Under the pieces are notes generated by a model. That model did not search any database. It was not told where the DNA came from and saw only the letters and a list, made by a program, of their open reading frames with translations. DNA of 64,000 nt from an uncultured Clostridia bacterium (GTDB lineage Bacteria > Bacillota > Clostridia > Christensenellales > CAG-314): the NCBI GenBank assembly GCA_947570215.1, contig CANOTO010000004.1:92522-156521 (forward strand), in the 5' to 3' direction. A program made the translations under genes and the position numbers. Within the stretch, counting starts at the first letter, position 1. Each line of letters opens with the position of its first letter. Positions 7,540 to 22,738 of this stretch are shown here, piece after piece.

Positions 7540-7593
7540 GCTGTAATCGGTGAAAATTTTTTATGATTATCGGTGAAAATATTGCGAAAATTG

Positions 7594-7622: not shown

Positions 7623-7639
7623 GTAAAGGCTGTTGAAGT

Positions 7640-7842: not shown

Positions 7843-7858
7843 AACTACTCGTTTGCCT

Positions 7859-7935
7859 GTGCCTGTAGCTCAGCAGGATAGAGCAACGGCCTTCTAAGCC
7901 GTGTGTCGGGGGTTCGAATCCCTTCAGGCACGCCA
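7859..7935 (+). tRNA. tRNA-Arg (anticodon UCU), CCA encoded
   Basis: Acceptor GTGCCTG/CAGGCAC, anticodon loop CTTCTAA. Confidence 0.85.
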
Positions 7936-7940
7936 ATTAT

Positions 7941-8018
7941 GGTGGGCTTAGCTCAGCTGGTTAGAGTGCCAGATTGTGACTCTGGAGGTCATGGGTTCGA
8001 TTCCCATAGCTCACCCCA
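7941..8018 (+). tRNA. tRNA-His (anticodon GUG) with genome-encoded G-1, CCA encoded
   Basis: Extra 5' G opposite discriminator C, anticodon loop TTGTGAC. Confidence 0.9.
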
Positions 8019-8027
8019 TAATTATAA

Positions 8028-8102
8028 AGGGGTATAGCCAAGCGGTAAGGCATCAGACTTTGACTCTGACACTCGTAGGTTCAAATCCTGCTACCCCTGC
8101 CA
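8028..8102 (+). tRNA. tRNA-Gln (anticodon UUG), CCA encoded
   Basis: Acceptor AGGGGTA/TACCCCT, anticodon loop CTTTGAC. Confidence 0.88.
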
Positions 8103-8107
8103 AGTTT

Positions 8108-8183
8108 GATCCATTAGCTCAGTCGGTAGAGCACATGACTTTTAATCATGGTGTCCCGCGTTCGAATCGCGGATGGATCACCA
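8108..8183 (+). tRNA. tRNA-Lys (anticodon UUU), CCA encoded
   Basis: Acceptor GATCCAT/ATGGATC, anticodon loop CTTTTAA. Confidence 0.9.
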
Positions 8184-8221
8184 TTAGATATATCGGCTGC
8201 AAGCGCAGGCACAATATATAT

Positions 8222-8297
8222 GCATCTTTAGCTCAGTTGGTAGAGCAACTGACTCTTAATCAGTGGGTCCAGGGTTCGAGTCCCTGAAGGTGTACCA
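8222..8297 (+). tRNA. tRNA-Lys (anticodon CUU), CCA encoded
   Basis: Anticodon loop CTCTTAA, T-arm CAGGG-TTCGAGT-CCCTG. Confidence 0.88.
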
Positions 8298-8310
8298 AAC
8301 CAATCGACGT

Positions 8311-8394
8311 GCGGATATGGCGGAATTGGCAGACGCGCTAGACTTAGGATCTAGTGTCTTCGACGTGGGGGTTCAAGTCCCTTTATCCGCACCA
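8311..8394 (+). tRNA. tRNA-Leu (anticodon UAG), long variable arm, CCA encoded
   Basis: Acceptor GCGGATA/TATCCGC, anticodon loop CTTAGGA, 84 nt. Confidence 0.9.
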
Positions 8395-8423
8395 AATTGA
8401 ATATGTGGCAAACTTTACAGTTT

Positions 8424-8498
8424 GCGGGAGTGGCTCAGTGGTAGAGCGCTGCCTTGCCAAGGCAGATATCGCGGGTTCGAATCCCGTCTCCCGCTCCA
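8424..8498 (+). tRNA. tRNA-Gly (anticodon GCC), CCA encoded; integration target of the element
   Basis: Acceptor GCGGGAG/CTCCCGC, anticodon loop TTGCCAA. Its last 25 nt are repeated at 25769-25793. Confidence 0.92.
8474..8498 (+). repeat. attL core (3' end of tRNA-Gly GCC)
   Basis: GGTTCGAATCCCGTCTCCCGCTCCA, identical to 25769-25793. Confidence 0.9.
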
Positions 8499-8502
8499 AT
8501 AA

Positions 8503-8548
8503 ATAGGCATTTTTAGGTAAATTTAACCCGAAAATGCCTATTTTTTTG
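8503..8548 (+). terminator. Element-borne intrinsic terminator now closing the tRNA operon
   Basis: 11-bp stem ATAGGCATTTT/AAAATGCCTAT (8503-8513/8531-8541) followed by a T7 run. Confidence 0.7.
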
Positions 8549-8580
8549 CATTTTGGGGCGGTTTTTAGGTATTTTTAACC
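8510..8580 (+). repeat. Two 19-nt direct repeats next to attL (candidate integrase arm-type sites)
   Basis: TTTTTAGGTAAATTTAACC (8510-8528) and TTTTTAGGTATTTTTAACC (8562-8580) match at 17 of 19 positions. Confidence 0.45.
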
Positions 8581-8635
8581 ACTGTTAAACGTCAAATCGG
8601 GAATTTCGGGGGTACGTTTGGGGGTATTCCATACG

Positions 8636-9841
8636 TTACCAATCAAGTTTTTCCGATTCTTTAAGCAAAAATTCGTCGGGCAAGTCGGTATAGGTATCTT
8701 TAAGCACGCCGCCGGAATGTCCGACCATTTCGTTTATTGCGCTTTGCGCTACTCCGCAAGTTACGCAGTGCGTATAAAACGTCGTTCGTAAGTCGTACAA
8801 GATATGATTCGGCAGTATCGAATTAAACTTTTCCCGTAAGTATTTTAGACTTACCCAGTCTATCTCGCTTATTCCGTCTAAATACGGTTGCAGTAATTTA
8901 ATTATGGGAATACGTTTCGTCGCTATTTCGCCGTTTTTGCGTTTGCTGTTTTTCGCAACAATAAACTTACCGCAAATTTTCGCCGTTTTGTATTCGTTGG
9001 GACGAAGTCCCGTATACAAGGCAATGGCGAAGAATAGTTGATAGCGAGTACCTGCAGTTTTGTCTAACAACAGTTTTTCTTCTTCCAACGTTAGTGCCGA
9101 ACCGTGTTTGCGCTCATGTTGCTTATGGAAAACCATTTGTACGGGGTTGTGTTGTATCAGTCCGAATTTTACTGCGCAACCGAGTATTTGGTTTAACAGA
9201 CTGCGTACTTCGTCGGCCGTCTTGCCTTTTCCTTGTTCGGTAAAGTCGTCAAGTATCCGCTGAATGTCTATTGCGTTTACGCTGCGCAAATGTTTCTTCG
9301 CAAACGGTTCTTCCAAAGCCCGGCGAAAGCGCCATATATCGTTTTTGTACGTTCGTTCTGCAACTTTGCGTTTATGGAAGTGTTCAAACCAAAAATACGC
9401 AAATTCGTTGAACGTCGTCGGAACGGTTCTGCCGTTGTTAACCTTTATAGGTCTTTGCTGATCGGCTATTTTAAGTTTTTCAATGAATTTTTGTTTTGCT
9501 TCTTCGAGTGTTTTTGCGCTTGCCGTTACGTTGTAACCGTTGCGGCGGTACCGTATTTCGTAACTGCAACGGTAGCGTCCGTCGCAGCGTTTGCGAACGT
9601 GAGCGGTGCAGCCTTCCACTCGAAACTCTCTTCTGAATGTCTTTGGCATCTTTGAAATCTCCTTATCTGAAAATTTCAAAGGTCTGCAATAAACTGTTTT
9701 TTCATTAGATCCTGCGCTTTCCGTCAGTTCGGCATTCAGCGCGGCAATCTCCTTGGTAAGCCGCTCCCTGTCGGCTTGGTTGTTGGTAAAACTTAACATT
9801 ACCAACTTTTGCGATAGCAAAATCATTTGTTCTGCGTTCAT
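8636..9841 (-). CDS. int: Tyrosine-type site-specific integrase
   Basis: C-terminal catalytic region with LRPNE, HDLRTTF-like (YDLRTTFYTHC), GHSGG and a terminal Y (KDTYTD). Adjacent to the tRNA att site. Confidence 0.88.
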   Translation of the reverse strand: MNAEQMILLSQKLVMLSFTNNQADRERLTKEIAALNAELTESAGSNEKTVYCRPLKFSDKEISKMPKTFRREFRVEGCTAHVRKRCDGRYRCSYEIRYRRNGYNVTASAKTLEEAKQKFIEKLKIADQQRPIKVNNGRTVPTTFNEFAYFWFEHFHKRKVAERTYKNDIWRFRRALEEPFAKKHLRSVNAIDIQRILDDFTEQGKGKTADEVRSLLNQILGCAVKFGLIQHNPVQMVFHKQHERKHGSALTLEEEKLLLDKTAGTRYQLFFAIALYTGLRPNEYKTAKICGKFIVAKNSKRKNGEIATKRIPIIKLLQPYLDGISEIDWVSLKYLREKFNSILPNHILYDLRTTFYTHCVTCGVAQSAINEMVGHSGGVLKDTYTDLPDEFLLKESEKLDW

Positions 9842-9918
9842 AGTTACATTTCTCCTTGTGTATTATTCCACTTGCGTGGTAACACAGAGTATAGCGACTA
9901 TGAACGTTTTTTCAAGGG

Positions 9919-10251
9919 CTAATTCTTTGCGCCATCCACAAGGAAACGGGCGTAATTGATAAGCCCTTTCTGCGCTTCCGACCCAAGTTTGCTGCCGATT
10001 TCTTCGTACAGCATTAGCAGTTCTTCTTTGTCGGGTGTAAGCTCGTAGTTTGATACGCCAAATTCTTCATCTTCCGTTGTGGGTAGCTGCATAGCAACTA
10101 ATATTTTATTTAATGTATCAATTCTAGGGTACTTGACGTAGCCACAAAAAACATTGGTAATTGTGGATCGTTCGAGTTTAGTTAATCTTGCTAAATCATC
10201 GTAGGTTAAATGTAGTTCTTTTTTTCGTTTCTTTAATTGTTCCAAATCCAT
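9919..10251 (-). CDS. XRE-family helix-turn-helix repressor (cI-like)
   Basis: HTH segment LTYDDLARLTKLERSTITNV. GGAG lies 8 nt upstream of ATG 10251. The longer ORF-track start at 10314 lacks an RBS. Confidence 0.8.
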   Translation of the reverse strand: MDLEQLKKRKKELHLTYDDLARLTKLERSTITNVFCGYVKYPRIDTLNKILVAMQLPTTEDEEFGVSNYELTPDKEELLMLYEEIGSKLGSEAQKGLINYARFLVDGAKN

Positions 10252-10307
10252 ATTCAACGCTCCATATTGCAATAGTACCAAAATATAGACTTTTTGCAAA
10301 AAAACGC

Positions 10308-10347
10308 TTGACAAAGTCCCTACGATTAGACTATATTGAAAATAGTC
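10308..10347 (+). promoter_or_regulatory. Rightward early promoter with an overlapping palindromic operator
   Basis: TTGACA (10308-10313), 18-nt spacer, TATATT (10332-10337). A 19-bp imperfect palindrome GACTATATTGAAAATAGTC (10329-10347) covers the -10 box. Confidence 0.55.
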
Positions 10348-10506
10348 CCAAAAATGGGGTAAAAATAGCCTTGAAGTCTGCGGAATTCAAGTTTTGCAAA
10401 AGTATTCAATTTCTTGGTCGATTTTGATTATATCAAACTATTCCGCAAACTTCAAGCAGTTTACCCAATTATGGGAATATTTATCTGAAATAGGGAGCGC
10501 GAAACT

Positions 10507-10962
10507 ATGGACGAAAAGAAAGAATACACATTCAAAGTCCCTGCGGAGATTTTTTACACCAACGAAGGGACTTTATCTATTAGCATTAAAATATTAGCCA
10601 ACGACAGCAGTGTTCTCAAACGGATTCTCGCAGGCAAAACAATCGACGACAATAAGAGTTGTTTTGGAATGTACGTCCGCAACGACATAAATACGTTATG
10701 GCAAACTTTTGTTATGTTCAGCGGAATGTTTACTTTTACGGAAACGCCGCAACGTACCAAAGAAGAAATTACCGCCGAAGCGCTGGAACTTGCCGTGTTG
10801 CGGCTTTTGGATAAAGACGACGACCTTTGCGCCGTATGCGCAAGGCGTGAAGCTTGCACCAAAGAATCGAACGAACAGGGCGAAGCATTTAATAAGCCTA
10901 AGTGTAGCGTTTGCGTGGAGAACGTTAGCCGGTACTTTATGGAGCAAGCGAAAAACGATTAG
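10507..10962 (+). CDS. Hypothetical protein with a C-terminal CxxC...CxxC cluster
   Basis: 151-aa ORF with RBS-like GGGAG upstream. First gene of the rightward operon. No family recognised. Confidence 0.6.
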   Translation: MDEKKEYTFKVPAEIFYTNEGTLSISIKILANDSSVLKRILAGKTIDDNKSCFGMYVRNDINTLWQTFVMFSGMFTFTETPQRTKEEITAEALELAVLRLLDKDDDLCAVCARREACTKESNEQGEAFNKPKCSVCVENVSRYFMEQAKND

Positions 10963-10970
10963 CAGGTTTC

Positions 10971-11000
10971 GTACGCTGTACCTAACAGCGTACATCAATA
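10971..11000 (+). repeat. Hairpin plus conserved tail, copy 1
   Basis: 9-bp stem GTACGCTGT/ACAGCGTAC. The tail TAACAGCGTACATCAATA is repeated at 11348-11365 with 1 mismatch. Confidence 0.6.
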
Positions 11001-11025
11001 ATCAAAAAGTAAAAGGGGATAGTTT

Positions 11026-11316
11026 ATGAATGAAATTGTAGTTGAAGGTAAGATTGATTATTTAGACGTATGTAATGAGCACTATAATTGTACTTTTCGT
11101 GCTGTTCTACAGAAGAGCAAATCTTTTTGCTGTGGTTATAAAACTTTTGTAACTATTACTTATGGCTTAACGGTACACGGTTATCTTTGTAAGCCTGATT
11201 ATATCGATATAACCTACGACCGTTCTATCAGAATTACGGAAGAAGATTTCAAAGATTGGTTGTGCAACTATTTCAACTTGACTTTATCTGAACACGATTT
11301 AACTTTTTTCAATTAA
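11026..11316 (+). CDS. Hypothetical protein (96 aa)
   Basis: ORF with AAAGGGGA RBS. No family recognised. Confidence 0.55.
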   Translation: MNEIVVEGKIDYLDVCNEHYNCTFRAVLQKSKSFCCGYKTFVTITYGLTVHGYLCKPDYIDITYDRSIRITEEDFKDWLCNYFNLTLSEHDLTFFN

Positions 11317-11334
11317 CGTTTGTTTTTACTGTTC

Positions 11335-11365
11335 GTACGTTGTCGGTTAACAGCGTACACCAATA
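11335..11365 (+). repeat. Hairpin plus conserved tail, copy 2
   Basis: 9-bp stem GTACGTTGT/ACAGCGTAC (one G:U pair), followed by ACCAATA. Confidence 0.6.
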
Positions 11366-11743
11366 GAGTTTGGCATAGAACGGATAACTCTAAATATGTT
11401 TTCTTCTCCAAAGCGTCGTAGGTCGGCGACGATAAACAAACGGCTCGTTGCAGTTCTCAGTCTCGACAATCAGAACTGTATAATCAAAACTTGGTCGTGT
11501 AAGACGGTTAGCGGTGTCGTCCGGAAACATTACCGCCCCAAGGTAGATTGGCGACCTATATACAACAGCCATTATCAGCCTTGCGATAAGGGACAGGGCA
11601 GGTGTGTTGTGCGTTTTCCTAAAACAAACGTACACCGTTTGTTGGCGGCAAAGAACGGTTGCGCGGATGCAGCGCTATATAAAAGGCAACGAAGTTCGCG
11701 CCGGGAGAGCCGCCACTCCCGAACACGCGCGAAGCGGTGAAAA

Positions 11744-12268
11744 ATGGGTTACAGAATATTAGCAGTTTTAATAATTGCACTTGTGTTAATAGTCGTCTTC
11801 GTAATTCGGAGAACTGTAAAGAAAAAGCGCAAAGATGAAAAAGGCAGGATATATAAGACGACTGACGGATATTTAGCGGATAATCCTAAAAATAAGAAAA
11901 AGCGCAACGTAGTAGTCGTAGAGCAGCGCAAAAAGGACGGAGCGATAGCGGTTAGCAAGATATTCGGCGCAGATGAAAAATCGGGAGATTTTTATATTGA
12001 CGATTTAGAACTGAAACCGAGTGAACATAGTTCATTGACAAAGAATTCTCTTGTAGAACGGCGTGTGAAGTTTGGCGTTAAACGTAACGGTAGGCATACG
12101 CCAATTTATATTAGAGATTTGAAACCAACAAACGACAAACTCACAAAAAAGGAAATGCGGAAAGTCAATAAACAAAAAGGCGGAAAGACTGTAAAAAATA
12201 GGCGGACGTATAGAAGTACACGCAGTAATTGGAAGCAAGGGTTCAAGAATAAAAACAAAAGAAAATAA
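11744..12268 (+). CDS. Hypothetical N-terminally membrane-anchored, very lysine-rich protein
   Basis: One TM helix (ILAVLIIALVLIVVFVI) followed by a K/R-rich sequence to the C-terminus. Confidence 0.6.
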   Translation: MGYRILAVLIIALVLIVVFVIRRTVKKKRKDEKGRIYKTTDGYLADNPKNKKKRNVVVVEQRKKDGAIAVSKIFGADEKSGDFYIDDLELKPSEHSSLTKNSLVERRVKFGVKRNGRHTPIYIRDLKPTNDKLTKKEMRKVNKQKGGKTVKNRRTYRSTRSNWKQGFKNKNKRK

Positions 12269-12340
12269 AAAAAAAAACCGAGTCGGCTGTGAAGCAAGAC
12301 TCGGGGTGGGACATTCCGGAAATGCCCCTGCTTAATTGGC
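12267..12340 (-). ncRNA. Candidate ~70-nt small RNA, convergent with the upstream gene
   Basis: Minus-strand promoter (see next feature). Terminator with 7-bp plus 3-bp stem (12278-12304) and a U11 tail (12267-12277). No credible ORF. Confidence 0.5.
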
Positions 12341-12346
12341 AATTAT

Positions 12347-12375
12347 AGTATATGCCAATTTGAGCAAAAAGTCAA
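12347..12375 (-). promoter_or_regulatory. Near-consensus sigma-A promoter on the minus strand
   Basis: TTGACT (complement of 12370-12375), 17-nt spacer, TATACT (complement of 12347-12352), with an overlapping TATAAT. Confidence 0.55.
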
Positions 12376-12418
12376 CACTATTTTGAGAATTCATATAAGC
12401 AAATTTTAGGGGTGCGAA

Positions 12419-12664
12419 ATGAGAGCGGAACAGGTCGGGCAAATTATCGAAACGGAAGCGCAGAAGCCTAAAATAGGCAAAGTCGTTTATTACGGCGTAT
12501 GTAGCGTTTGCGGCGAGAAAATAGACGTTTCCAACAAGTTGGAATTTAATCAAAAAGAGTATTACGCAGACAACTTCGGTATTGAAAAAGTAGGCGACAA
12601 ATGGGTTTGCAAACAAGAAATACGGCTACAAAACTGCCCGTTTTGCGAGAAACCGCCGTTTTGA
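12419..12664 (+). CDS. Small zinc-ribbon-like protein (CxxC ... CxxC)
   Basis: 81-aa ORF with AGGGG RBS and two CxxC pairs (CSVC, CPFC). Confidence 0.55.
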   Translation: MRAEQVGQIIETEAQKPKIGKVVYYGVCSVCGEKIDVSNKLEFNQKEYYADNFGIEKVGDKWVCKQEIRLQNCPFCEKPPF

Positions 12665-12734
12665 GCGGTAAATTTGTCGGTTCGGTAAGTTATAAAGGCG
12701 GCAAACCGTTGGAATTTAAGGGAGTGTTCACACA

Positions 12735-12908
12735 ATGGCAAAATGCGAAATTTGTTGTAATGAATGTAATGGCGAAATTAAAATCGCAGCGTATAATCAC
12801 AGCGCAATAATTTGCGGTAAGTGCGCCGTAGATAAAGAAATAATAACAGACCCCGAAATAGTAAAAATAATCTGCAAAGCGGAAGGCTTTGAAAAGTTGC
12901 GGCAATGA
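12735..12908 (+). CDS. Small Cys-rich protein (57 aa, below the ORF-track cutoff)
   Basis: AAGGGAG RBS 10 nt upstream. Sequence MAKCEICCNECNGE...CGKC. Confidence 0.45.
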   Translation: MAKCEICCNECNGEIKIAAYNHSAIICGKCAVDKEIITDPEIVKIICKAEGFEKLRQ

Positions 12909-13072
12909 AAAAGTTTACTTTTGTTTATCAGCCGATTAGCGGCGGTTCGGATTCCGTAACGCTTTACGCAAAGAATTACGGTATTGCTATCAATAGATTC
13001 AAACACCAATATAAGTATTTGAAAATAATAAAAATTGTAAAGGAGAAAAAAGAAAATGGCAAAGAAGAATAA
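12905..13072 (+). CDS. Possible small protein (55 aa), ATGA-coupled to the previous ORF
   Basis: Open frame MKKFTFVYQPISGG.... No separate RBS. Overlaps the next gene start. Confidence 0.3.
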   Translation: MKKFTFVYQPISGGSDSVTLYAKNYGIAINRFKHQYKYLKIIKIVKEKKENGKEE

Positions 13073-14162
13073 TTCACGTTCTGCAATGGGGGGGGGCGTA
13101 ATAGTTCTCTCATTGTTGTTGCTTGCAGCAATTATATGCGGAGCGATAACTCACGGGTTTACAACGTGGACAACGTGCGGCTGCTTCGGACATAAGTACG
13201 GCGACGACGGCGTTTGCGTACGCTGCAAGGAAGCAAAGCCTACGGAGAAAACTGACGGCGCAGTCGTAGACAACGACGGCAACGTAATGGATTCCGACAA
13301 GGTTTACGCAATGCCTACGGGTATGACGTTTTCATCGGCAAAGCAACTCAACGCCGAGCCGTCCGAAGAAACTGAAAAGAGCGTAACCATAACGGCGACA
13401 ATCGAACCTGCCGACGCTACTAACAAAAACGTTGACTGGTCGGTTGCGTTCGTAAACGCAGACAGTACTTGGGCAAGCGGTAAGACCGTAACGGACTATA
13501 TAACGGTAACGCCGACTTCCGACGGTTCGCTTACTGCAACGGTAACCTGTAAACAAGCGTTCGGCGAGCAAATAGTCGTGCAATGCGTAGCGCAGGATAA
13601 CGCCGAAGCTTCGGCAAGTTGTACGGTAGATTATAGAAGGCGTGTTGAAAACGTAGCTGTTTCTATTGACGGTTTTATGAGCGGCGGTTTCGTTTCGGGT
13701 TCTATAAGTTTGTATACGGACAATGCCCCTACGAAAAACGTTTCTCGGCACGTAACTTACTCCGTAGGAACTGTCGGCGGCGACGAAGAAGTAATTATCG
13801 AATACAAGTTGGGCGATATAATTTACAGCCAAATGTCAGCGCATTTTTGTATGGGACACGATTGGAATACCTGTAAAGACGTTAATCACTTGTATTACCA
13901 ACTAAACCAAGACTGGCACCAAATAGGAAATACATTAACGACGGATATTTCGTTCTTAGAACCGATGTTCAAGTTTGTTCCTACAAATTACACGTCTGCA
14001 CTTAATAGTGCAAGAATAATTTTCAAAAATACTGTCGGCGCAATCGTATTTAGAATAACCTGCGGAGATTGGACGAAAGAATTATCGTTCCAGACCACCG
14101 TAGAAAACTTCAAAATATCCGTAACGAACGTTACGTTAAATCAAGGAACGTTAGAGTTTTAG
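13056..14162 (+). CDS. N-terminally anchored surface protein with a bacterial Ig-like (Big_2-like) domain
   Basis: AAGGAG RBS and a TM helix VIVLSLLLLAAIICGAI. The segment TATIEPADATNKNVDWSV...TVTPTSDGSLTATV resembles Big_2. A G9 tract lies at 13088-13096. Confidence 0.7.
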   Translation: MAKKNNSRSAMGGGVIVLSLLLLAAIICGAITHGFTTWTTCGCFGHKYGDDGVCVRCKEAKPTEKTDGAVVDNDGNVMDSDKVYAMPTGMTFSSAKQLNAEPSEETEKSVTITATIEPADATNKNVDWSVAFVNADSTWASGKTVTDYITVTPTSDGSLTATVTCKQAFGEQIVVQCVAQDNAEASASCTVDYRRRVENVAVSIDGFMSGGFVSGSISLYTDNAPTKNVSRHVTYSVGTVGGDEEVIIEYKLGDIIYSQMSAHFCMGHDWNTCKDVNHLYYQLNQDWHQIGNTLTTDISFLEPMFKFVPTNYTSALNSARIIFKNTVGAIVFRITCGDWTKELSFQTTVENFKISVTNVTLNQGTLEF

Positions 14163-14293
14163 ACGGCAATAAATGTACTTCTTTTAGTATTGCCGCTAAA
14201 ACGAACAAAATGCTTTTAGCGGCGATACGCCGTAAAAGTGCGTAATCGGGACACGGTACGCATATAGCCCCGAAACGGGGGAAGGAGTACATA

Positions 14294-15598
14294 ATGAGCA
14301 AAAATAAAACAAAGAGTAACAGAAGCAATGCAACGTTGTACGTCGTTCTCGTAATCGTGCTGATTGCAGTAATAGTTGGCGGAGTAATAACGCACGGCTT
14401 CCAAGATTGGACGGAACAACCGCGAGCGTATGTTTCGGATAAAATACTTTCTTCGGCGCAGCTACTCAGCTCAGACGGCAAGTCTGTTTCTGCAGGATAC
14501 CGTCCCTTGAAAGTCGGGGACGAAATGTCTAAGATTGCATACTTCGCAATCGACGTATACGGCAAAGCGCGCAATGAAATAGATTCTTTCAAACTATTTT
14601 CGTCAGGCGATGAAACAATAACAATCTTCCTATGGGAACGTTATCAAGGCGAATACAGTTTCGGAATAATAAACGGAACGTTGGCAGATAATTTTCCGCA
14701 TCTTGACGAAGATAATTTATCTCAATTAAGCAGTGCCGTATGGGGAACTTTCGAAGACTACCGAATTGATGAACATAATCCATATTTAGATTTGTATATT
14801 GGCGACCTTGATGCTCGCGAAATAAATTACGGTTATACTGTTGACAATATAGGAACTCTGCCTATTTACGTTCAAACCGTACTAACAGAATTGCCGCCCG
14901 CTCCTGCGAAAACGGGATATACGTTTACAGGTTGGTATACGGATGAAGACTGTACACAGTTGTATACGGAAGACTTTGTTAATTCGGATATTACGCTGTA
15001 CGCAGGCTTCCAAGCTAATTCGTACAGCATTAAGTTCAACGCCAACAGCGGCAGCGGAACTATGGCAAACGAAGCTATGACGTACGACCAAAGCAAGGCG
15101 CTTACTGCCAACGGTTTTACCAAGGAACACTACCAATTCAAGGGTTGGGCTACGTCTGCCGACGGCGAAGTCGTATACGCAAACAATGCCGAAGTCAAGA
15201 ACCTTACGGCAACCGACGGCGCGGTAATTGAGCTCTTTGCAGTTTGGGAACGTTCGGAAGTTTCCGTTACATTCGTATCCGAAGGAAATACGGTAGCTAC
15301 AACTTGGATAGCGATAGGCACAAAGGCGACGTTACCTAAAACGCCCGTTAAGGAAGGACACCTGTTCAACGGTTGGTACTACGAAGACGGTACCAAGTAC
15401 GAAACGCAGAATATATCCGAAGACATTACGCTTACGGCAAAGTTCAGTATTATCCGCTGCACCGTTACGTTCATAGTAGACGGCGAAGTTTATGCGGTAT
15501 ACGTCTGCGACTGGGGTACTTCCATTGCGCAAGCGTTGAACGGCGCGGGCGTTAACACTGCACTGTACAAGGCGGATGAGCATAGCCGAAATTTTTAG
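14294..15598 (+). CDS. N-terminally anchored surface protein with three Listeria-Bacteroides-type (Flg_new-like) repeats
   Basis: GGAAGGAG RBS and a TM helix LYVVLVIVLIAVIVGGVI. Repeats GYTFTGWYTDED, HYQFKGWATSADG and GHLFNGWYYEDG. Confidence 0.75.
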   Translation: MSKNKTKSNRSNATLYVVLVIVLIAVIVGGVITHGFQDWTEQPRAYVSDKILSSAQLLSSDGKSVSAGYRPLKVGDEMSKIAYFAIDVYGKARNEIDSFKLFSSGDETITIFLWERYQGEYSFGIINGTLADNFPHLDEDNLSQLSSAVWGTFEDYRIDEHNPYLDLYIGDLDAREINYGYTVDNIGTLPIYVQTVLTELPPAPAKTGYTFTGWYTDEDCTQLYTEDFVNSDITLYAGFQANSYSIKFNANSGSGTMANEAMTYDQSKALTANGFTKEHYQFKGWATSADGEVVYANNAEVKNLTATDGAVIELFAVWERSEVSVTFVSEGNTVATTWIAIGTKATLPKTPVKEGHLFNGWYYEDGTKYETQNISEDITLTAKFSIIRCTVTFIVDGEVYAVYVCDWGTSIAQALNGAGVNTALYKADEHSRNF

Positions 15599-15626
15599 TT
15601 AGGCAAGACTTGACTGTAAGTCTTGC
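15589..15626 (+). promoter_or_regulatory. Candidate -1 programmed ribosomal frameshift signal
   Basis: Slippery heptamer A_AAT_TTT (15589-15595) in the zero frame, just before stop TAG (15596-15598). A 7-nt spacer follows, then a 9-bp stem GCAAGACTT/AAGTCTTGC (15603-15626). Confidence 0.55.
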
Positions 15627-15759
15627 AAAAACTTGGCTCGGCGAACGGCTTACTGAAACTCAGTTTTGGTGGGCAGTTGCAGGAGCGTGTGTAGGAATAG
15701 TTTTTCTTTTGTCCGTAGTACTTGGCGCAGTAATTACAAAGAAAAGGAGTAAAAGATGA
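15595..15759 (+). CDS. -1 frame extension (54 aa) encoding a TM helix plus a basic tail; alternatively an independent TTG-initiated 49-aa ORF from 15610
   Basis: Open -1 frame LVRQDLTVSLAKTWLGERLTETQFWWAVAGACVGIVFLLSVVLGAVITKKRSKR. It ends in ATGA overlap with the next gene. Confidence 0.45.
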   Translation, partial: LVRQDLTVSLAKTWLGERLTETQFWWAVAGACVGIVFLLSVVLGAVITKKRSKR

Positions 15760-16325
15760 AAAAAGTATTAGCATTTTGGGGCGTAGTCTTAATATTAGCG
15801 TTAATCGCGGGCGTTGTGTATTTCGTCTACGTCTTTACGGGAGAGTTCTCGACGGACTTCAAAACTTTCTACGTTGAGATAGACAAAACCAAGTACGTCA
15901 AAGATACGTACGACTTAACGTTTGGCAAAACGCGTGTGGACGTGCATTACACCTTTGAGAAAGTGCAGACGAAGAAGTTGACGTTTACATACGCAATAGA
16001 GCCGACGGGCAGCGACTTCAATTTTACAGTGGACGGCGAGAAAGTAAGTTGGCTGAATGTCGACGGACTTTCCGAAGCGTTTGACGTAAAAAAGGACGCC
16101 GACGCTTTAACGCTCGATTGCACAAATAAAAAGGTATCCGACGTATTGAAAGCAGTTTATCCAAACAGCGATATAGTATTACCGGACGGAATAGACGAAG
16201 AACGGATAAGTCGTTACAAGCTTACAGTTACGTCAGAAGATAAACGCATAAGCGTGTCGTTAACGTTCAAATGTTCGGCAGCTATTGAAAACATTGTTCT
16301 CGACCCGTCCGAGATTACGTTTTAG
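15756..16325 (+). CDS. Hypothetical N-terminally anchored or secreted protein (189 aa)
   Basis: AAAGGAG RBS and an N-terminal hydrophobic segment VLAFWGVVLILALIAGVVYFVYVF. Confidence 0.65.
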   Translation: MKKVLAFWGVVLILALIAGVVYFVYVFTGEFSTDFKTFYVEIDKTKYVKDTYDLTFGKTRVDVHYTFEKVQTKKLTFTYAIEPTGSDFNFTVDGEKVSWLNVDGLSEAFDVKKDADALTLDCTNKKVSDVLKAVYPNSDIVLPDGIDEERISRYKLTVTSEDKRISVSLTFKCSAAIENIVLDPSEITF

Positions 16326-16338
16326 GAGAAGTGAAGTT

Positions 16339-18135
16339 ATGAAGAAATTGACTTTAATATTAACAATGGTATTGATAGTATCGGCAATAGGCGGTGGAAG
16401 TATCAACGCCTTTGCGGCTACAAACAACATTGACGCGAGCGACGTTTTGTTTGATTTGCAAAACAGTCAGATTGCCGGCGAAAACTTTAACGTAGACGAA
16501 TACGGATACTCTGACGAAAAAGACGTTAAGCTGCTTGCATTTGCGGAATACGGTTTTGCGTTCGATAAATCTAAAAGCGACTATAACATTTATCTTTATG
16601 TTTATAACCCAAGCGGACGGGAGATAAAAGCGGAGCGTAACGTTGTAAGTATTGCGACCGTTTACGAAAACGGCAAAGCGGTAGACTACGATAAGTTTGC
16701 GCTTAAACTGTTGAGCGTATCGGACGGCAAATACGCGCGGCTCTTTTACAAATTCAAAGTAAAAGACCCGACTAAACTGTTTACTCGCGTATCCGCCAAC
16801 ACTAACGTTAGGCGATACGACGTAAGCGAAATAGAGCTGAACTTCGGCGACGTCAGTAGCAAAGCGTATACGGTAGGTAACTACTATGAATATAGTGGCT
16901 ATGCGCAAGGGTTTGGCGCGGACAGCAAAGCGGAAAGTACACTGACTTGTACGACGGACAATATTGATACCTTGGAATTAAAAGTTAAAAGTACGTATTA
17001 CAGATATAACAATGGAACGTCTACGCAAAAAGATATATCCAGCGTTTACTTCGGAATACCCAATGAAATTTTTACAAAGTACGGAAATTTGCAACAAATA
17101 AAAGCAAACTGGTTTGAAACGAAAACAATGCCGCAGTATGTTTTTACAAATCAAAACTTGTACAGAAATCTCTATCCGTATTTAGGGGTCAATAAGAAAA
17201 ATCAAGTCGTACCGCTTCCCGAAGTAGACGGACACCGTTTTTTTGATATTTGCGTCGGCGCAGGTCCGGGCGTAGCTAAATATGCTTTCAAATTCGGAGA
17301 GTACGATAGTAAATACGACGGCGTAGTCGGATTGGGTACGTATTATTTCAATCAACTGGACTGGATGTTTTACAGTAAAAACGGAAAAGTATCTTCTACG
17401 GAAGTCATACACGAAGCTCAGAATTATACGTCTAAAATAGGCGGCGAATTGCTAATAGATAAGTACAGCAAAAACCTATTCGTTGCAGAAGTGGACGACG
17501 GACGGCAGTACGGTTGGCAAGGTACGGACGGAAACGGCATTGTTATCGACGCAGATAGCACGTTTAATATCGACGGATTTGACGCGGGCAGTAAGTTTAT
17601 GACATGGTTTACACAGGTTTGTTACGGCAAATTAGAAACAAACGAGCTGTCTATAACTCCCATTTACTTAGTCGAAGAAAACGACGTTATAGGGAATGCA
17701 GAAACAATCGCGCAAAGATTATACATAGAAGAAAGCGACGTAACGGAGTTTTTGCAAACATATGAACAAAATAAAGTTGAAGGTAAGAGAACTGTACTTT
17801 TTCGCTTCGCTACAACCGATTATACAGCGTATCCACTTTGGGCGCGTTGTGAGAAAGCATTTCATTGTGGAATAAATAGTGAAGTGGGGTACGGTGCGCA
17901 GCAAACTGTTTTCTTGGATTTTGACATAATATGGCTGAAATTCTTAAAAGCGGGACAAGCTACGGTAATACCCTGCGTATCCAGTCCGATAGACGTATTT
18001 CACGGTTTAACTCCGCCTTTGCAGCCGAGCGGCAGCAATATTTGGGTAATAATACTTACTGTTATCATCTGCGTAATAATGCTTATTTTGGTTTTTAAGC
18101 TATTAGGTGTAGTGCTGAAAAAACGGAGTAACTAA
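16339..18135 (+). CDS. Large secreted protein with a signal peptide and a C-terminal TM anchor (pIII-like topology)
   Basis: AGGAGAAG RBS and signal peptide MKKLTLILTMVLIVSAIGGGSINAFA. The C-terminus is IWVIILTVIICVIMLILVFKLLGVVLKKRSN. The ORF-track start at 16285 lacks an RBS. Confidence 0.7.
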   Translation: MKKLTLILTMVLIVSAIGGGSINAFAATNNIDASDVLFDLQNSQIAGENFNVDEYGYSDEKDVKLLAFAEYGFAFDKSKSDYNIYLYVYNPSGREIKAERNVVSIATVYENGKAVDYDKFALKLLSVSDGKYARLFYKFKVKDPTKLFTRVSANTNVRRYDVSEIELNFGDVSSKAYTVGNYYEYSGYAQGFGADSKAESTLTCTTDNIDTLELKVKSTYYRYNNGTSTQKDISSVYFGIPNEIFTKYGNLQQIKANWFETKTMPQYVFTNQNLYRNLYPYLGVNKKNQVVPLPEVDGHRFFDICVGAGPGVAKYAFKFGEYDSKYDGVVGLGTYYFNQLDWMFYSKNGKVSSTEVIHEAQNYTSKIGGELLIDKYSKNLFVAEVDDGRQYGWQGTDGNGIVIDADSTFNIDGFDAGSKFMTWFTQVCYGKLETNELSITPIYLVEENDVIGNAETIAQRLYIEESDVTEFLQTYEQNKVEGKRTVLFRFATTDYTAYPLWARCEKAFHCGINSEVGYGAQQTVFLDFDIIWLKFLKAGQATVIPCVSSPIDVFHGLTPPLQPSGSNIWVIILTVIICVIMLILVFKLLGVVLKKRSN

Positions 18136-18263
18136 TGAAAATTTTGAAATTTATCGGCGCAATCTTGCTTGCGCTGCTTGCAGGCGGAATAATCTTGCAA
18201 GTACTCGGATATATCGACAGTCCGCTATTCAACTGGTTTAGCGAACTGCACTTGTTTAAGTAG
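18135..18263 (+). CDS. Small hydrophobic protein (42 aa)
   Basis: GGAG RBS. Sequence MKILKFIGAILLALLAGGIILQVLGY.... The start overlaps the upstream stop (TAATG). Confidence 0.5.
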   Translation: MKILKFIGAILLALLAGGIILQVLGYIDSPLFNWFSELHLFK

Positions 18264-18271
18264 GTGAACAT

Positions 18272-18430
18272 ATGGGTTGGGTTTTAATACTGGTATTAGG
18301 ACTTATTGCATTATCTGTAACAATAGGTGGCGGAATCAACACAGATTTTTTAACCTTACTTGCAATTTTTGCCGTTGGTATAGTCGTAATCTTTGCCATA
18401 AAAAAGATATGGGACGAGTTTCATAAATGA
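18272..18430 (+). CDS. Small two-TM protein (52 aa)
   Basis: AGGTGA RBS. Sequence MGWVLILVLGLIALSVTIGGG...LLAIFAVGIVVIFAIKK. ATGA overlap with the next gene. Confidence 0.5.
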   Translation: MGWVLILVLGLIALSVTIGGGINTDFLTLLAIFAVGIVVIFAIKKIWDEFHK

Positions 18431-19713
18431 AAACTATAAAAAAGCACTTGGCGTTGAACTATCTATATTACGCTTTGCCGTGCATATTGAGCGTAGCGTA
18501 TTTGTTATTATTTGCCGCAGATTATACGACGTTGCAGTATTTAATAAACAGTTTGTACGCCAATTTATTCAACTTAATAATGCTGTCTTGCGCAATCGTA
18601 GCCGTCCCGAACTTTTGCCGTTTGGTATATTATACCAAACTTACGCTAAATTTGCCTAACGACGCATATTTGCCTGCAGCGGCAAACGAACGTTTCGGGT
18701 TCGCAGGCGGCGGCAAGTCGTCCAGTACGGCAATTCAAGCGTTTTTTGAAGCGGAAAAAATGCAGGAAGAAACGGAAGGGAAGTACAATTATATGCTTGC
18801 CAACCGTGAACGTTGGACAAGGGACGGGGAAGAATACAAACTCGCTAACTTTGACCGAATAGAGAAGTCTGTTGAGTTTTGGAACGCGCACCCCGAGTAT
18901 ATTCCGTATTTGGTAAGCGATTTAGAGATTATAGCGCCGGACGGAAGAAAGTCGATGTTCTTTACCCGTGAGCATTTGGAGCAGGAAGAATGGCTACCAA
19001 TATGTTTCCTGTTGGCTGACGAAGGCGGTACGCTAATGCCGCAGGACGAATATTCAGACCGTCCGCAAAGAATGGTAACTTTTTTCCGTCTAATACGTCA
19101 GTTCGGAATACGCGCTTGTATATGCGAACAGAAGAAAGACGGAATACTAATAAACGTCAGGGCGGTTCTCGGCGGAACCGTGCTTTGTTTGGGACAGCGC
19201 AACGCTTTGCTTCCGAACTTGCTTTTATCCGTCATAGCCTTTCTCAAACGCTTGTTGCCTAAAACTAAAAACAATCCGAAATTAGGCTTGGTGATAGAAA
19301 AATTAAGCAACTTTGCCGCTTGTTTGGGCTTTCGTATATGGGACCAGTTATTTTTCAGAACAATGGACTTCAAAGAGTTTGTGCCGCCTGAAAAAATTAA
19401 AATCGTTTGCACGAATAAGTTACCGTTCTATTACGACGATATGGCATACGCAGACTTATATCTTGCAAAGGATAAAACGCCGAAAATAATAGAGCAGAAA
19501 GGACGACCGACAAAGGGTACGCCGATGGGCGACGCAATGCTTAGATTGTGTACAATCGAAGAACAGAATTTGAAAGACAAAGAAGAAGTAAAGTTGCACA
19601 GTAAATTGAAAGTAAGCAACGGTATTAAATCTGAAACGCTGAAACAATTCGATTTGGACAAAAAGTTAGAACAGCAGAAAAAGGCGCAAAACGACGGCGC
19701 AAAAAAATCTTAA
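18427..19713 (+). CDS. Membrane-anchored P-loop NTPase (Zot/pI-like assembly ATPase or FtsK/TcpA-like translocase candidate)
   Basis: Two N-terminal TM helices, Walker A GFAGGGKS (aa 91-98), Walker B FLLADE (aa 194-199) and a charged coiled C-terminus. Confidence 0.65.
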   Translation: MKTIKKHLALNYLYYALPCILSVAYLLLFAADYTTLQYLINSLYANLFNLIMLSCAIVAVPNFCRLVYYTKLTLNLPNDAYLPAAANERFGFAGGGKSSSTAIQAFFEAEKMQEETEGKYNYMLANRERWTRDGEEYKLANFDRIEKSVEFWNAHPEYIPYLVSDLEIIAPDGRKSMFFTREHLEQEEWLPICFLLADEGGTLMPQDEYSDRPQRMVTFFRLIRQFGIRACICEQKKDGILINVRAVLGGTVLCLGQRNALLPNLLLSVIAFLKRLLPKTKNNPKLGLVIEKLSNFAACLGFRIWDQLFFRTMDFKEFVPPEKIKIVCTNKLPFYYDDMAYADLYLAKDKTPKIIEQKGRPTKGTPMGDAMLRLCTIEEQNLKDKEEVKLHSKLKVSNGIKSETLKQFDLDKKLEQQKKAQNDGAKKS

Positions 19714-20121
19714 TAACGAAAGACACTGCGGCGGCAAACCGATACGTACTGCTTCGCTTATAAGTTCAACTCGCAGAGTTAGTTGGGAATTGGAAAAGCA
19801 TATTGAATATGTAGTTGCAAGGTTATATTTAGGAATCGACAATGCAAAAGGCAAAAACATTAACGACGACACGAAATAATATTTTTCGTTCCAACTGGTT
19901 GGGACGGAAAATTTATTCGGGGCGGCGTTACGTGTTGTGGTTGCATTATCGAAAAAGAAACTTGCAACGACAAAACAAATCGCTTTTCCAATTCCAAACT
20001 TCACGATTGAGCGAAAAGTTACGTTTCGGTAAAGACTTGGTAAAGAGAAAAACCGCATAAAACGTAAAAAAGGGGGTTGCGGGGGCTTGCCCCCGACGTT
20101 CGGAAAAAAGTTTGGTACCAA

Positions 20122-20391
20122 ATGGGAAGATTAGTTCTAACAAGATTTAACAAAAGAACTTGTAAGGTTGAGCAGCTGACATTGGAAAACGTAAATTTAT
20201 CTGCACACTATATTGACAATTTCGGCAGACCTACAACGCTGATTCACTTAATTGCAGATAACCCCGCATGCGTACAAAAAAGTTACATAATAACGGAAGT
20301 AACGGACGAACGATTAGTCGAAGGTATACATTACAACGCAAGCGAAGCAGCGCAAAAATGGTGGGATAAGTATGAAAAACAAGAAGAATGA
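20122..20391 (+). CDS. Hypothetical protein (89 aa)
   Basis: ORF from ATG 20122. The ORF-track TTG at 20077 lies inside a GC hairpin. Weak RBS. Confidence 0.45.
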   Translation: MGRLVLTRFNKRTCKVEQLTLENVNLSAHYIDNFGRPTTLIHLIADNPACVQKSYIITEVTDERLVEGIHYNASEAAQKWWDKYEKQEE

Positions 20392-20496
20392 AGTATTGCC
20401 GGGACAACTGTCAATCTGGGATAGTCCGTTCTATGACATTTTGATGGGGGGGGGTATCTCTAACAGAAAATACGGAACAGGGGGAAGTTAAAGACG

Positions 20497-20694
20497 ATGA
20501 AAGTAAGGTTAATGGGAACGAAACGGGAATGCGAAATAATGCAAGATTTCTTTCGGAAGAATTTACAGAACGGTAACGGTTATTCTGTGTCAAGGCTTTA
20601 TTCGAATAGGGGCAGTACGGATATGTATCGGGTGTACGTCGAATTTAATATGCCTTCCGATACTTCAAATTTTTTGCAACTAAAAGGCGGCTGA
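20497..20694 (+). CDS. Hypothetical protein (65 aa)
   Basis: ORF with G-rich RBS. No family recognised. Confidence 0.5.
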   Translation: MKVRLMGTKRECEIMQDFFRKNLQNGNGYSVSRLYSNRGSTDMYRVYVEFNMPSDTSNFLQLKGG

Positions 20695-20696
20695 AA

Positions 20697-20864
20697 ATGA
20701 CGAAGAAGTATGTGCAAGTGAAAATAAATATTCCGACGTCTTATAGAAGCGTAATCGAGTATTGCGACAAACTGTCTACGCAGCGTATACTTTCTGCTCG
20801 CATTATCCGATTACTTTCGGACGACTTAAACAAAAGAAAAAAGGAAGAAAATACGAATGTTTAA
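20697..20864 (+). CDS. Small hypothetical protein (55 aa), overlaps the methyltransferase start
   Basis: MTKKYVQVKINIPTSYRSVIEYCDK.... 8-nt overlap with the next gene. Below the ORF-track cutoff. Confidence 0.4.
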   Translation: MTKKYVQVKINIPTSYRSVIEYCDKLSTQRILSARIIRLLSDDLNKRKKEENTNV

Positions 20865-22728
20865 TTACCAAAGCAGCATATTGGACGAACTAATAGTAGA
20901 CAACTTCGCCGGGGGCGGCGGAGCAAGCACGGGTATAGAACTCGCAGTCGGGCGTCCCGTAGATATAGCGATCAACCACGACCCCGACGCAATCGCCATG
21001 CACAAGGTAAACCACCCGTTTACGAAGCATTACCAAGAGAGCGTTTGGGATATAGACCCCAAAAGAATTACCGAAGGGCGACCAGTCGGCATTGCGTGGT
21101 TTTCTCCCGACTGTAAACATTTCAGTAAAGCAAAGGGCGGAAAGCCCGTAGACAAGAAGATAAGGGGCTTAGCGTGGATAGCGTTGCGTTGGGCAGGAAC
21201 TGTCAGACCGAGAATAATTATGCTCGAAAACGTCGAAGAGTTCCAAACGTGGGGACCGGTTAGACGTGGTAAGCCTGTTAAGAGCAAGCAGGGGCAGACG
21301 TTCCGCAAGTTTGTAGGCCAACTCGAAGCGTTAGGCTATAAGGTAGAGTATAAAGTCTTGCGGGCTTGCGATTACGGAGCGCCTACGATTCGCAAACGGT
21401 TTTACTTAATAGCCCGTTGCGATGGGCTGCATATCGTCTGGGCGGAGCCTACGCACGGCGAAGGCAGAAAGCCGTATCGGACGGCTGCGGAGTGTATAGA
21501 CTGGTCGTTACCCTGTCCGTCCATATTCGGACGTAAAAAGGAACTTGCCGTTAATACGCAGCGGCGTATAGCAAAAGGTTTAGACAAGTTCGTAATAAAG
21601 AACCCGAAGCCGTTTATTATGCAAATGAACTTCGAGAACGCAGCGCAAGACGTAGACAAGCCGTTATCTACTCAGACGGCTGTAAACAAACATTTCGTTG
21701 TAGAACCGAAGTTCACGCCGTACATAATGAGCAATAATACGAATAACGCCACGCACTCGGTAAAAGAACCGTTGCCGACAGTTACTACTGGCAACCGCAA
21801 TTTCGTCTGCGCTCCGACGTTGGTACAGTACCACACGGAAACAAGCGCAAAAGAAACTCGTGGGCAGGACGTAAAGCAGCCGCTCCGAACGGTAGACGGT
21901 TCGCCGAGATACGGTTTGCAAGCGGCGTATTTATCCAAATATTTCAGCGGCGAAAAGCAAGCGGGCGCAGACGTACAAAGCCCAATGCCTACGGTTACGG
22001 GAATAGACCATAACGCTGTAACGGTTTGCTATCTATCCAGCAGACATGGCGACGGAAGCGACGGCAGGGGTAAAGACTTAGCCGAACCTGCGCCGACTGT
22101 TACGGCAGACTGCCACGAACATATTATTGCGGCTAACTTACTGCGTTATTATGGTGGCGAAGAACATGCAAGCGATATGGATAAGCCGATAGCAACCGTT
22201 ACAACGTTGCCAAGACATTATTTGTCTGAAAGCCACCTATGCGTATTCCAAAATCATATGGACTGCAAAGGCTTGGACGAGTCATTTCCGACGATTACAC
22301 AGGCGTTGAAGTTCGGGCAAGTCAAGACGTATCTGTGCAAAATAGATTCCGCGCAGAACTTAGGCAACTGGGATAAAGTAAGATGTCTGCTAAACGAATA
22401 TGCAGGTTATTCGATTGCCGACGATGAAATACTTATACTCGAAATAAACAAGGTGCAGTACTTCATTTACGACGTGGGAATGCGAATGTTAAAGGCAAAG
22501 GAACTAAAACTTGCACAAGGCTTCCCGACAGATTACTGTATCGACATAGAAAGCAAAATAGGCAAGAAATACAGCGAAGCAAAACAAATCGCGCGGCTCG
22601 GCAATGCGGTTTGTCCGCCGGTTGCTACGGCGTTGGTAAAAGCGAATTACATAGACACAGTAGCTAAGCCGCTCGTAACAATGGCTGCACTGAATGAACA
22701 TTTACAAAGACGTATGGCGAAGAGATAA
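20857..22728 (+). CDS. DNA (cytosine-5)-methyltransferase with an expanded repeat region
   Basis: Motif I FAGGGG, catalytic SPDCKHFS, motif VI ENV, QGFP and GNAVCPPV. Seven ~35-aa P-x-x-T-V/I-T modules lie between motifs VIII and IX. Confidence 0.88.
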   Translation: MFNYQSSILDELIVDNFAGGGGASTGIELAVGRPVDIAINHDPDAIAMHKVNHPFTKHYQESVWDIDPKRITEGRPVGIAWFSPDCKHFSKAKGGKPVDKKIRGLAWIALRWAGTVRPRIIMLENVEEFQTWGPVRRGKPVKSKQGQTFRKFVGQLEALGYKVEYKVLRACDYGAPTIRKRFYLIARCDGLHIVWAEPTHGEGRKPYRTAAECIDWSLPCPSIFGRKKELAVNTQRRIAKGLDKFVIKNPKPFIMQMNFENAAQDVDKPLSTQTAVNKHFVVEPKFTPYIMSNNTNNATHSVKEPLPTVTTGNRNFVCAPTLVQYHTETSAKETRGQDVKQPLRTVDGSPRYGLQAAYLSKYFSGEKQAGADVQSPMPTVTGIDHNAVTVCYLSSRHGDGSDGRGKDLAEPAPTVTADCHEHIIAANLLRYYGGEEHASDMDKPIATVTTLPRHYLSESHLCVFQNHMDCKGLDESFPTITQALKFGQVKTYLCKIDSAQNLGNWDKVRCLLNEYAGYSIADDEILILEINKVQYFIYDVGMRMLKAKELKLAQGFPTDYCIDIESKIGKKYSEAKQIARLGNAVCPPVATALVKANYIDTVAKPLVTMAALNEHLQRRMAKR

Positions 22729-22738
22729 AGAAATTGAA

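Follow-up and report, generated by a model that had tools for sequence, protein, structure and literature searches.

A probable −1 programmed ribosomal frameshift that would add a C-terminal membrane anchor to a repeat protein of an inovirus-like island

The 3′ end of the repeat-protein gene

We analysed a 64,000-nt stretch of DNA from an uncultured Clostridia bacterium (CAG-314; GCA_947570215.1, contig CANOTO010000004.1, positions 92,522-156,521), hereafter called the window, in which the gene of a 434-aa repeat protein ends in what we consider very probably a site of −1 programmed ribosomal frameshifting (PRF). An earlier note on this DNA had proposed that a slippery heptamer directly before the stop codon, together with a stem-loop behind it, opens a −1 frame that encodes a C-terminal transmembrane (TM) anchor. 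The case presented here is comparative sequence analysis throughout. The 434-aa protein begins with a basic segment and a TM helix, continues with a variable domain and three Flg_new repeats, and closes with a conserved C-terminal module. Its Flg_new (Listeria-Bacteroides / InlB B-type) repeats match PF09479 in three stretches (E = 5.9e-32; 110 bits against a cut-off of 27), and PF18998 matches the protein at 33 bits. The gene terminates with CGA AAT TTT TAG, and the following features lie at and around this end:

14294-15598, + strand: zero-frame open reading frame (ORF), 434 aa, C-terminus ...EHSRNF, assigned by translation, PF09479 match and homologues
15569-15580, + strand: Shine-Dalgarno (SD)-like block AAGGCGGATGAG, putative 5′ frameshift stimulator, 12-13 nt 5′ of the heptamer
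15583-15585, + strand: −1-frame TAG, 3 nt 5′ of the heptamer; present in 16 of the 21 loci compared below
15589-15595, + strand: slippery heptamer A_AAT_TTT, zero-frame X_XXY_YYZ, directly 5′ of the stop
15596-15598, + strand: zero-frame TAG stop, abutting the heptamer
15603-15626, + strand: stem-loop, putative 3′ frameshift stimulator, after a 7-nt spacer (15596-15602)
15595-15759, + strand: −1-frame extension of 54 codons plus TGA, with linker, TM helix and basic end
15744-15749 and 15756-15758, + strand: SD (AAGGAG) and ATG of the next gene, within the tail's basic end; stop and start overlap as ATGA

Thus, the heptamer, the spacer, the stem-loop, the open frame and the ATGA overlap described in the earlier note could all be confirmed in the sequence. 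The stem arms, GCAAGACTT(G)/(T)AAGTCTTGC, form nine Watson-Crick pairs and a closing G.U, i.e. 10 bp around a loop of 4 nt, and the local fold has a z-score of -3.3, with none of 200 shuffles being as stable. Within the SD-like block, the core GGCGG occupies 15571-15575, where relatives have GGAGG (one mismatch in the window). Since the −1 frame carries a TAG at 15583-15585, a shift that reaches the tail is confined to 13 nt. The sequence T_TTT_TAG at the gene end would also permit single P-site slippage at the stop.

Read in the −1 frame starting at the heptamer, the extension is LVRQDLTVSLAKTWLGERLTETQFWWAVAGACVGIVFLLSVVLGAVITKKRSKR (LVRQDL...KKRSKR; coding 15595-15756, TGA 15757-15759). It comprises the linker LVRQDLTVSLAKTWLGERLTETQF, a TM helix at approximately W25-I47 (~15667-15735) and the basic end TKKRSKR; the predicted Lys-C peptide spanning the frameshift junction is ADEHSRNFLVRQDLTVSLAK. 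The K/R-rich end, AAG AAA AGG AGT AAA AGA TGA (15741-15759), doubles as SD and ATGA start of the next gene (15756-16325). Ribosomes completing the frameshift product could therefore couple to the translation of this next structural gene.

Slip site, tail and fused relatives across homologous loci

A homologue search with the hypothetical 488-aa product as query yielded 349 homologues, 120 of which were listed as cluster representatives. None of these best 120 of 349 covers the tail in frame with the query (coverage ≤89%). Among them, 95 terminate exactly in ...NF and others in ...PN, ...PNA or ...NFQ, while three terminate in an in-frame TM helix with a basic tail. We compared the DNA of 21 distinct homologous junctions. 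Each of them carries a zero-frame X_XXY_YYZ heptamer 0-1 codons 5′ of the stop (A_AAT_TTT in 17, C_CCA_AAC in three, C_CCT_TTA in one), and the conservation of the heptamer on which the earlier note had staked its proposal is hence borne out for the pattern, in three different sequences. Elsewhere in the same genes, in-frame heptamers of this type occupy 0.19% of codon positions. TAG, TAA and TGA all occur as the zero-frame stop, and the position of the heptamer relative to the −1 peptide is constant, even where the zero-frame stop sits one codon later. The interval in which a shift can reach the tail measures 13-16 nt in 16 of the 21 loci.

At the slip site, the residue preceding Asn may be R, E, Q, P, A, S or G, and its codon ends in A without exception; the product of the background fractions for this is 1.8e-4, with CGA, for instance, making up 8 of 141 Arg codons (6%). 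Asn is always encoded by AAT and Phe at the slip site always by TTT, against backgrounds of 45% and 55%, respectively. As judged from these junctions, the codon choice at the slip site is not explained by the amino acids. In E. coli, A_AA.U_UU.U falls in the efficient H_HH.U_UU.Y class and C_CC.U_UU.A is shifty without stimulators, whereas X_XX.A_AA.C is weak, yet insertion sequence (IS) elements use such heptamers (PMC4066793). Five loci (L156-L160; in L156 at ~580-592) have two overlapping heptamers, C_CCA_AAT_TTT, followed by TGA, and in these a strong GGAGGGTGAG block lies upstream and no convincing stem lies 3′.

The A3T5 run at the slip site, with T5 in AAATTTTT, might also let RNA polymerase slip, so that mRNAs one base shorter yield the same class of fused protein with no ribosomal slip. 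We regard this as very improbable. Productive bacterial transcriptional slippage has been described for runs of ~9 A or T (PMC5009743), whereas the window has T5, and C_CCA_AAC and C_CCT_TTA contain runs of only 3 nt while the same architecture is kept. Moreover, a downstream stem and an upstream SD-like block are stimulators of ribosomal shifting.

The −1 ORF is open in all 21 loci, as the earlier note had anticipated. Spanning 53-62 codons, it invariably comprises linker, TM helix and K/R-rich end, and its stop usually overlaps the start of the next gene as ATGA or GTGA; the other two frames over the tail contain 0-10 stops each. In linker codons 4-27, the synonymous share of codon differences is 35% in the −1 frame versus 9-10% in the other frames. 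By this comparison, purifying selection acts on the tail in the −1 frame of all 21 loci. From the junction onward, 16 tails and three natural fusions align nearly gap-free, with one invariant position (T) and three conserved to at least 90% (D, L and G).

These observations bear on the possibility that the split of an originally single-frame gene arose by a frameshift mutation or a sequencing error in a homopolymer, or marks a pseudogene, and that the tail stays untranslated. The break does fall in a short homopolymer, and single-frame relatives exist. However, the exact ...NF ending recurs in 95 of the 120 listed representatives, which stem from many independent assemblies, a decaying remnant would gain stops rather than remain open and selected in every locus, and three heptamer types as well as all three stop codons occur. 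The comparative data thus effectively refute this explanation, to which we assign only a minimal likelihood.

An independent small single-TM protein of 49-54 codons, of the inovirus-coat type and made from TTG 15610 or by termination-reinitiation, would be another way to express the tail. Its size and shape would suit such a protein, as inovirus coat proteins have been flagged by a length of 30-90 aa, one TM domain and a basic C-terminus (Roux et al., PMC6813254). The TTG lies 12 nt past the stop. In the Ff phages, SD-independent coupled initiation is known. Against this stands that the only canonical start in the −1 frame of the window before the TM helix is this TTG, inside the stem, and that no SD-like motif precedes any candidate start of the small ORF in any locus; the earlier note's view of the TTG as the sole and poorly equipped start therefore holds. 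Furthermore, ATG, GTG and TTG are all missing upstream of the TM helix in L007 and L011, and L005 and L013 reach a canonical start no earlier than the TM boundary. The position of the TTG does not keep a start codon either: codon 6, where it lies, reads TTG, ATG, GTC, TGT, ACA, CTA, ATT or TTA across loci, whereas the L[VI]xxD peptide upstream of it is conserved with synonymous variation, D5 being encoded by both GAC and GAT. An independent ORF would also leave the three X_XXY_YYZ heptamers, the A-ending codon bias and the 13-nt shift interval unexplained, and in single-frame relatives linker and anchor belong to the large protein. Altogether, we find an independent small protein improbable, though less so than polymerase slippage or a mutational split.

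Gene callers leave the tail ORF uncalled. In L185, the called start of a 697-aa downstream gene (6478-8571) lies in the +1 frame, 55 nt 5′ of the stop codon of the frameshift gene. Translation more likely begins at the GTG of the GTGA overlap with which the −1 tail closes, and the call illustrates how an unrecognised frameshift distorts annotation.

Some relatives are natural fusions. In the proteins P0052, P0115 and P0029, linker and anchor are encoded in a single frame and align with the tail of the window; likewise, in P0223, L161 and L162 one frame continues into a TM anchor with a basic end. The predicted trans-frame product of the window is collinear with P0052 across the junction, at 37% identity. 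Locus L183, which encodes P0052, has the same synteny as the window locus; heptamer, SD-like block and any significant stem are all missing from its equivalent site, and L161 and L162 have no in-frame heptamer within their last 115 codons. The earlier note had named homologues that keep the gene and lose the heptamer as its counter-evidence; the only relatives of this kind are those with the anchor fused in frame. By their sequences, such fused relatives without a heptamer support the frameshift model rather than refute it. An exhaustive HMMER search with P0052 was dominated by giant Flg_new repeat proteins and contributed one extra fused relative, P0223.

In the AlphaFold model of P0052, an N-terminal TM helix is followed by beta-rich domains and confident repeats, and a low-confidence linker leads to a C-terminal TM helix. 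We also considered that the frameshift might split a Flg_new/beta-grasp domain, with the motif D.x[IV].L..T behind the junction as its last strand. This idea was unsupported, as no Pfam domain extends across the junction and the equivalent linker of P0052 has a predicted local distance difference test score below 50 in the AlphaFold model, albeit with a shallow alignment in this region.

Putative stimulatory elements and the proposed decoding

Of the first 17 junctions, 11 possess a strong stem (-12 to -20 kcal/mol, spacer ~6-7 nt), as do L187 and L189; that of L188 is moderate (-11.1 kcal/mol). The stem sequences are unrelated between loci (GCAAGACTTG, CAGGGGATAT, AAGGATAT, CGTCCGA, AGTCCGACA and CCTCTG), and for most of the stems, synonymous-codon randomisations of the same peptide fold less stably. 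Among the nine sequences whose stem has the register seen in the window, 96.7% of cells pair, versus 19-40% with the partners slid. Changes on both sides occur in three of the ten stem pairs (G-C/G-U/A-U, U-A/C-G and U-A/G-C). Of the conserved stem and spacer expected in the earlier note, the compensatory changes and a spacing of ~6-7 nt were found; the expectation failed in six of the 21 relatives, which are without a strong stem. Rfam covariance models gave chance-level matches only between 15400 and 15800 (E = 2.3 and 6.3), with no known frameshift element among them.

The SD-like block reads GGAGG(A/G)TGAG in relatives. In the window, its duplex with the anti-SD has -7.2 kcal/mol, which places it in the top 0.5% of windows within its own gene, and in 14 of 21 loci the affinity of the block ranks in the top 3%. 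SD-like elements stimulate −1 shifts at a spacing of 9-14 nt (PMC5009743), a rule that the block fits at 12-13 nt upstream. It is thus a plausible stimulator, although its overlap with conserved Glu-Gly/Asp-Glu codons prevents a separation of this role from selection on the peptide. We observed no significant trade-off between the strengths of SD-like block and stem (rho -0.24, p 0.30). The stop directly after the heptamer is a further possible stimulator.

Several points weigh against frameshifting at this site. The 21 junctions are related, represent ~12 tail lineages and share a C-terminal module that has been recombined, so the statistics overstate their independence. Selection on the ...NF peptide could account for part of the conservation of the heptamer, and AAC-ending heptamers, as in the three C_CCA_AAC junctions, shift poorly in E. 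coli. Not all of the 21 junctions have the stimulators: a convincing 3′ stem within 48 nt is missing from six of the relatives, and seven loci lack a strong SD-like block in the -22..-9 region. Nonetheless, comparative analysis establishes the signal and its conservation, a coding −1 tail with no independent start, and the homology of this tail to in-frame fusions. In its heptamer, its open and selected −1 frame, its 3′ structure and its absence from fusions, the signal corresponds at the sequence level to canonical bacterial −1 PRF. We therefore hold with considerable confidence that the programmed −1 frameshift is real here, and that, just as probably, the 434-aa gene and the 54-codon ORF are one gene with two decodings.

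In the decoding that we propose, most ribosomes would probably stop at TAG 15596 and release the 434-aa form, which carries the N-terminal anchor only. A minority would slip one base back on A_AAT_TTT, with the tRNA-Asn in the P site re-pairing from AAU to AAA and the tRNA-Phe in the A site from UUU to UUU. A slip of tRNA-Phe by itself on U_UUU, with the stop codon in the A site, might give the same product. Slippage would be aided by the stem-loop 7 nt downstream, the SD-like block ~12-13 nt upstream and the adjacent stop. Shifted ribosomes would then read ...SRNF-LVRQDL..., producing a 488-aa form in which the linker leads to a C-terminal TM helix followed by a K/R tail in the cytoplasm, and would terminate in the ATGA overlap with the next structural gene. 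We infer that the shift takes place in vivo at a certain efficiency, that the 488-aa form is a membrane or virion species, and that the 434-aa form has a separate role or is surplus.

The inovirus-like island and the relation to known recoding systems

The window is part of a bacterial chromosome, as seen from genes for a RecJ-like DHH protein, RelA/SpoT, SMC, topoisomerase I and aspartyl-tRNA synthetase. The repeat-protein gene lies in an integrated island with the following features:

8474-25796, no strand assigned: integrated island of ~17.3 kb, delimited by attachment (att) repeats and gene content
8474-8501: attL, in the 3′ end of tRNA-Gly(GCC)
8636-9841, − strand: integrase
9919-10314, − strand: helix-turn-helix regulator
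11.7-18.4 kb: membrane-protein module
18135-18263 (42 aa) and 18272-18430 (52 aa): small hydrophobic ORFs, TM status from sequence/hydropathy only
18427-19713: Zot-family ATPase (P-loop protein, 428 aa)
20857-24654: cargo at the right end of the island, with a 623-aa C5 cytosine DNA methyltransferase, a PAPS-reductase-like protein and an N6/N4 DNA methyltransferase
25769-25796: attR, repeating 27/28 nt of the tRNA-Gly(GCC) 3′ end

The tRNA-Gly(GCC) used as integration site is the last of an eight-tRNA array at 7640-8498. The 428-aa P-loop protein has N-terminal TM segments and the Walker A motif GFAGGGKSS. It had no direct match in Pfam, PHROGs or a PDB sequence search; its distant homologues P0291 and P0292 (E ~1e-19) carry PF05707 Zot, and the relative in L002 matches the Zot-like phrog_197 at 2e-11. 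The protein probably represents a divergent assembly ATPase of the pI/Zot type whose N-terminal membrane domain is unusual. A rolling-circle (HUH) Rep was not recognised in the island of the window with Pfam, PHROGs or the PDB sequence search; relatives encode one in L002 (phrog_3419, weak PF23343) and L185 (Rep_OBD and S3 helicase). On account of the Zot homologues of the P-loop protein, and of the Zot-like ATPase and rolling-circle Rep in relatives, the island is classified by gene content as inovirus-like. Its short hydrophobic ORFs and pIII-like protein upstream of pI, as well as its integration between att repeats, agree with such a prophage.

Within this island, the 434-aa gene is part of the structural module and lies shortly upstream of a pIII-like gene and of pI/Zot. 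The pIII-like neighbour (598 aa) has a signal-like N-terminus and a C-terminal TM segment followed by KKRSN, as judged from sequence and hydropathy only. The earlier note had likened the −1 tail to this anchor. Both do consist of a TM helix followed by KKRS, but the likeness is of a generic kind. The upstream 368-aa gene (13056-14162) has the same N-terminal segment of a TM helix and ITHGF..W, and a CxFGHxYGxDxxCxRC motif is found in the 368-aa protein and in many homologues of the 434-aa protein, while the copy in the window lacks it. This pattern suggests that N-terminal anchors are shuffled modularly among paralogues. Genome collections contain members of the family in metagenome-assembled genomes of Christensenellaceae, Oscillospiraceae, Lachnospiraceae and further Clostridia; the close relatives L003-L006 are from assemblies with MGBC labels, presumably genomes of a mouse-gut catalogue. 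A blastn comparison of 13.0-19.8 kb with GenBank phages gave no match; in IMG/VR, a single-protein scan was empty and an alignment-based scan returned only generic Flg_new proteins, none from the 434-aa family.

The PN-type homologues P0101 and P0046 (L185 and L165) contain AxA signal-peptidase-like motifs (AFA-Q and ASA-A) after the N-terminal hydrophobic segment, so their short form might leave the cell. The 434-aa protein of the window has no AxA motif, and its long hydrophobic segment resembles an uncleaved anchor. The topology of the 488-aa form, in turn, is that of filamentous-phage coat and adsorption proteins before assembly. We tentatively suggest, and consider it possible rather than probable, that −1 PRF serves as a switch in these inovirus-like prophages, which would make the repeat protein, of a receptor-binding or adhesin type, either without a C-terminal anchor or, as a fixed minority, C-terminally anchored and built into the filament tip like pIII. 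If so, the unanchored form would be released in the PN-type relatives with AxA sites and would be anchored only N-terminally in the window. As the stop abuts the slip site, the ratio of the two forms could respond to termination efficiency or tRNA supply and couple virion composition to host physiology.

The signal has the architecture of those of E. coli dnaX and the IS cassettes (A_AAA_AAG), with a zero-frame heptamer, a stem-loop ~6-7 nt downstream and, as a putative third part here, an SD-like element 9-14 nt upstream. In dnaX of some bacteria, too, a zero-frame stop directly follows the shift site and the longer product arises from the shift (PMC5009743). Unlike in those systems, the heptamers here are A_AAU_UUU, C_CCA_AAC and C_CCU_UUA, there is no sequence homology, and the product is a secreted or membrane repeat protein to which the shift would append a TM anchor instead of truncating or extending an enzyme. 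Similar in outcome are phage structural proteins with Ig-like domains (the head of Lactobacillus phage A2, T3/T7 10A/10B, the Listeria A118/A500 coat), in which a shift at the 3′ end likewise gives two products. Related phages encode such an extension by frameshift or in frame (PMC5009743), and the in-frame alternatives among these phages are paralleled here by P0052, P0115 and L161-L162. However, those phages are tailed dsDNA phages that add a soluble decoration domain, whereas the element here is inovirus-like and would add a linker, a TM helix and a basic tail; PHROGs revealed no homology to their structural proteins.

Lambda gpG/gpGT is similar in that a morphogenesis gene undergoes a low-level −1 shift close to its end, which is believed to set the proportion of short to long product; the earlier note had pointed to fixed-ratio frameshift products of phage assembly genes as an analogy. 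The lambda products, which are unrelated proteins, serve tail assembly and do not occur in virions, and inoviruses are tailless. Neither the 434-aa protein nor the tail matched a tail assembly chaperone or other tail-morphogenesis PHROG, and the island has no tail module; a G/GT-type frameshift of a tail assembly chaperone was ruled out on these grounds. Recoding also decides whether a surface protein receives a (different) TM segment in Ebola GP/sGP (transcriptional editing) and arterivirus nsp2TF (−2 PRF), where soluble and membrane-anchored isoforms result (PMC5009743). These are eukaryotic RNA viruses that use polymerase stuttering or protein-stimulated −2 PRF, and there is no homology. 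Within the searchable literature (a recoding review, the PRFect paper, inovirus surveys and full-text searches), we found no natural frameshift described in filamentous or inovirus-like phages, and the present case is apparently the first one reported in a filamentous-phage-like element.

This well-supported PRF family, with three interchangeable heptamers, two kinds of putative stimulator and in-frame 'controls', is convenient for studying −1 frameshifting in Firmicutes, for which few cases have been characterised. Pipelines for inoviruses that flag 30-90-aa ORFs with a single TM domain as coat proteins could mislabel the tail, and if frameshifting does act as a switch, some annotated 'small coat protein ORFs' of inoviruses would be frameshift extensions. 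The findings further suggest how a prophage of abundant gut Clostridia (Christensenellaceae and relatives) could make two topologies of a surface repeat protein from one gene, which would bear on virion assembly, host range and possibly the surface properties of the host cell.

Lastly, a 20-nt direct repeat (19/20 identical) links 14287-14306, at the start codon of the 434-aa gene, with 21720-21739 in the C5 methyltransferase gene, and is probably due to chance.

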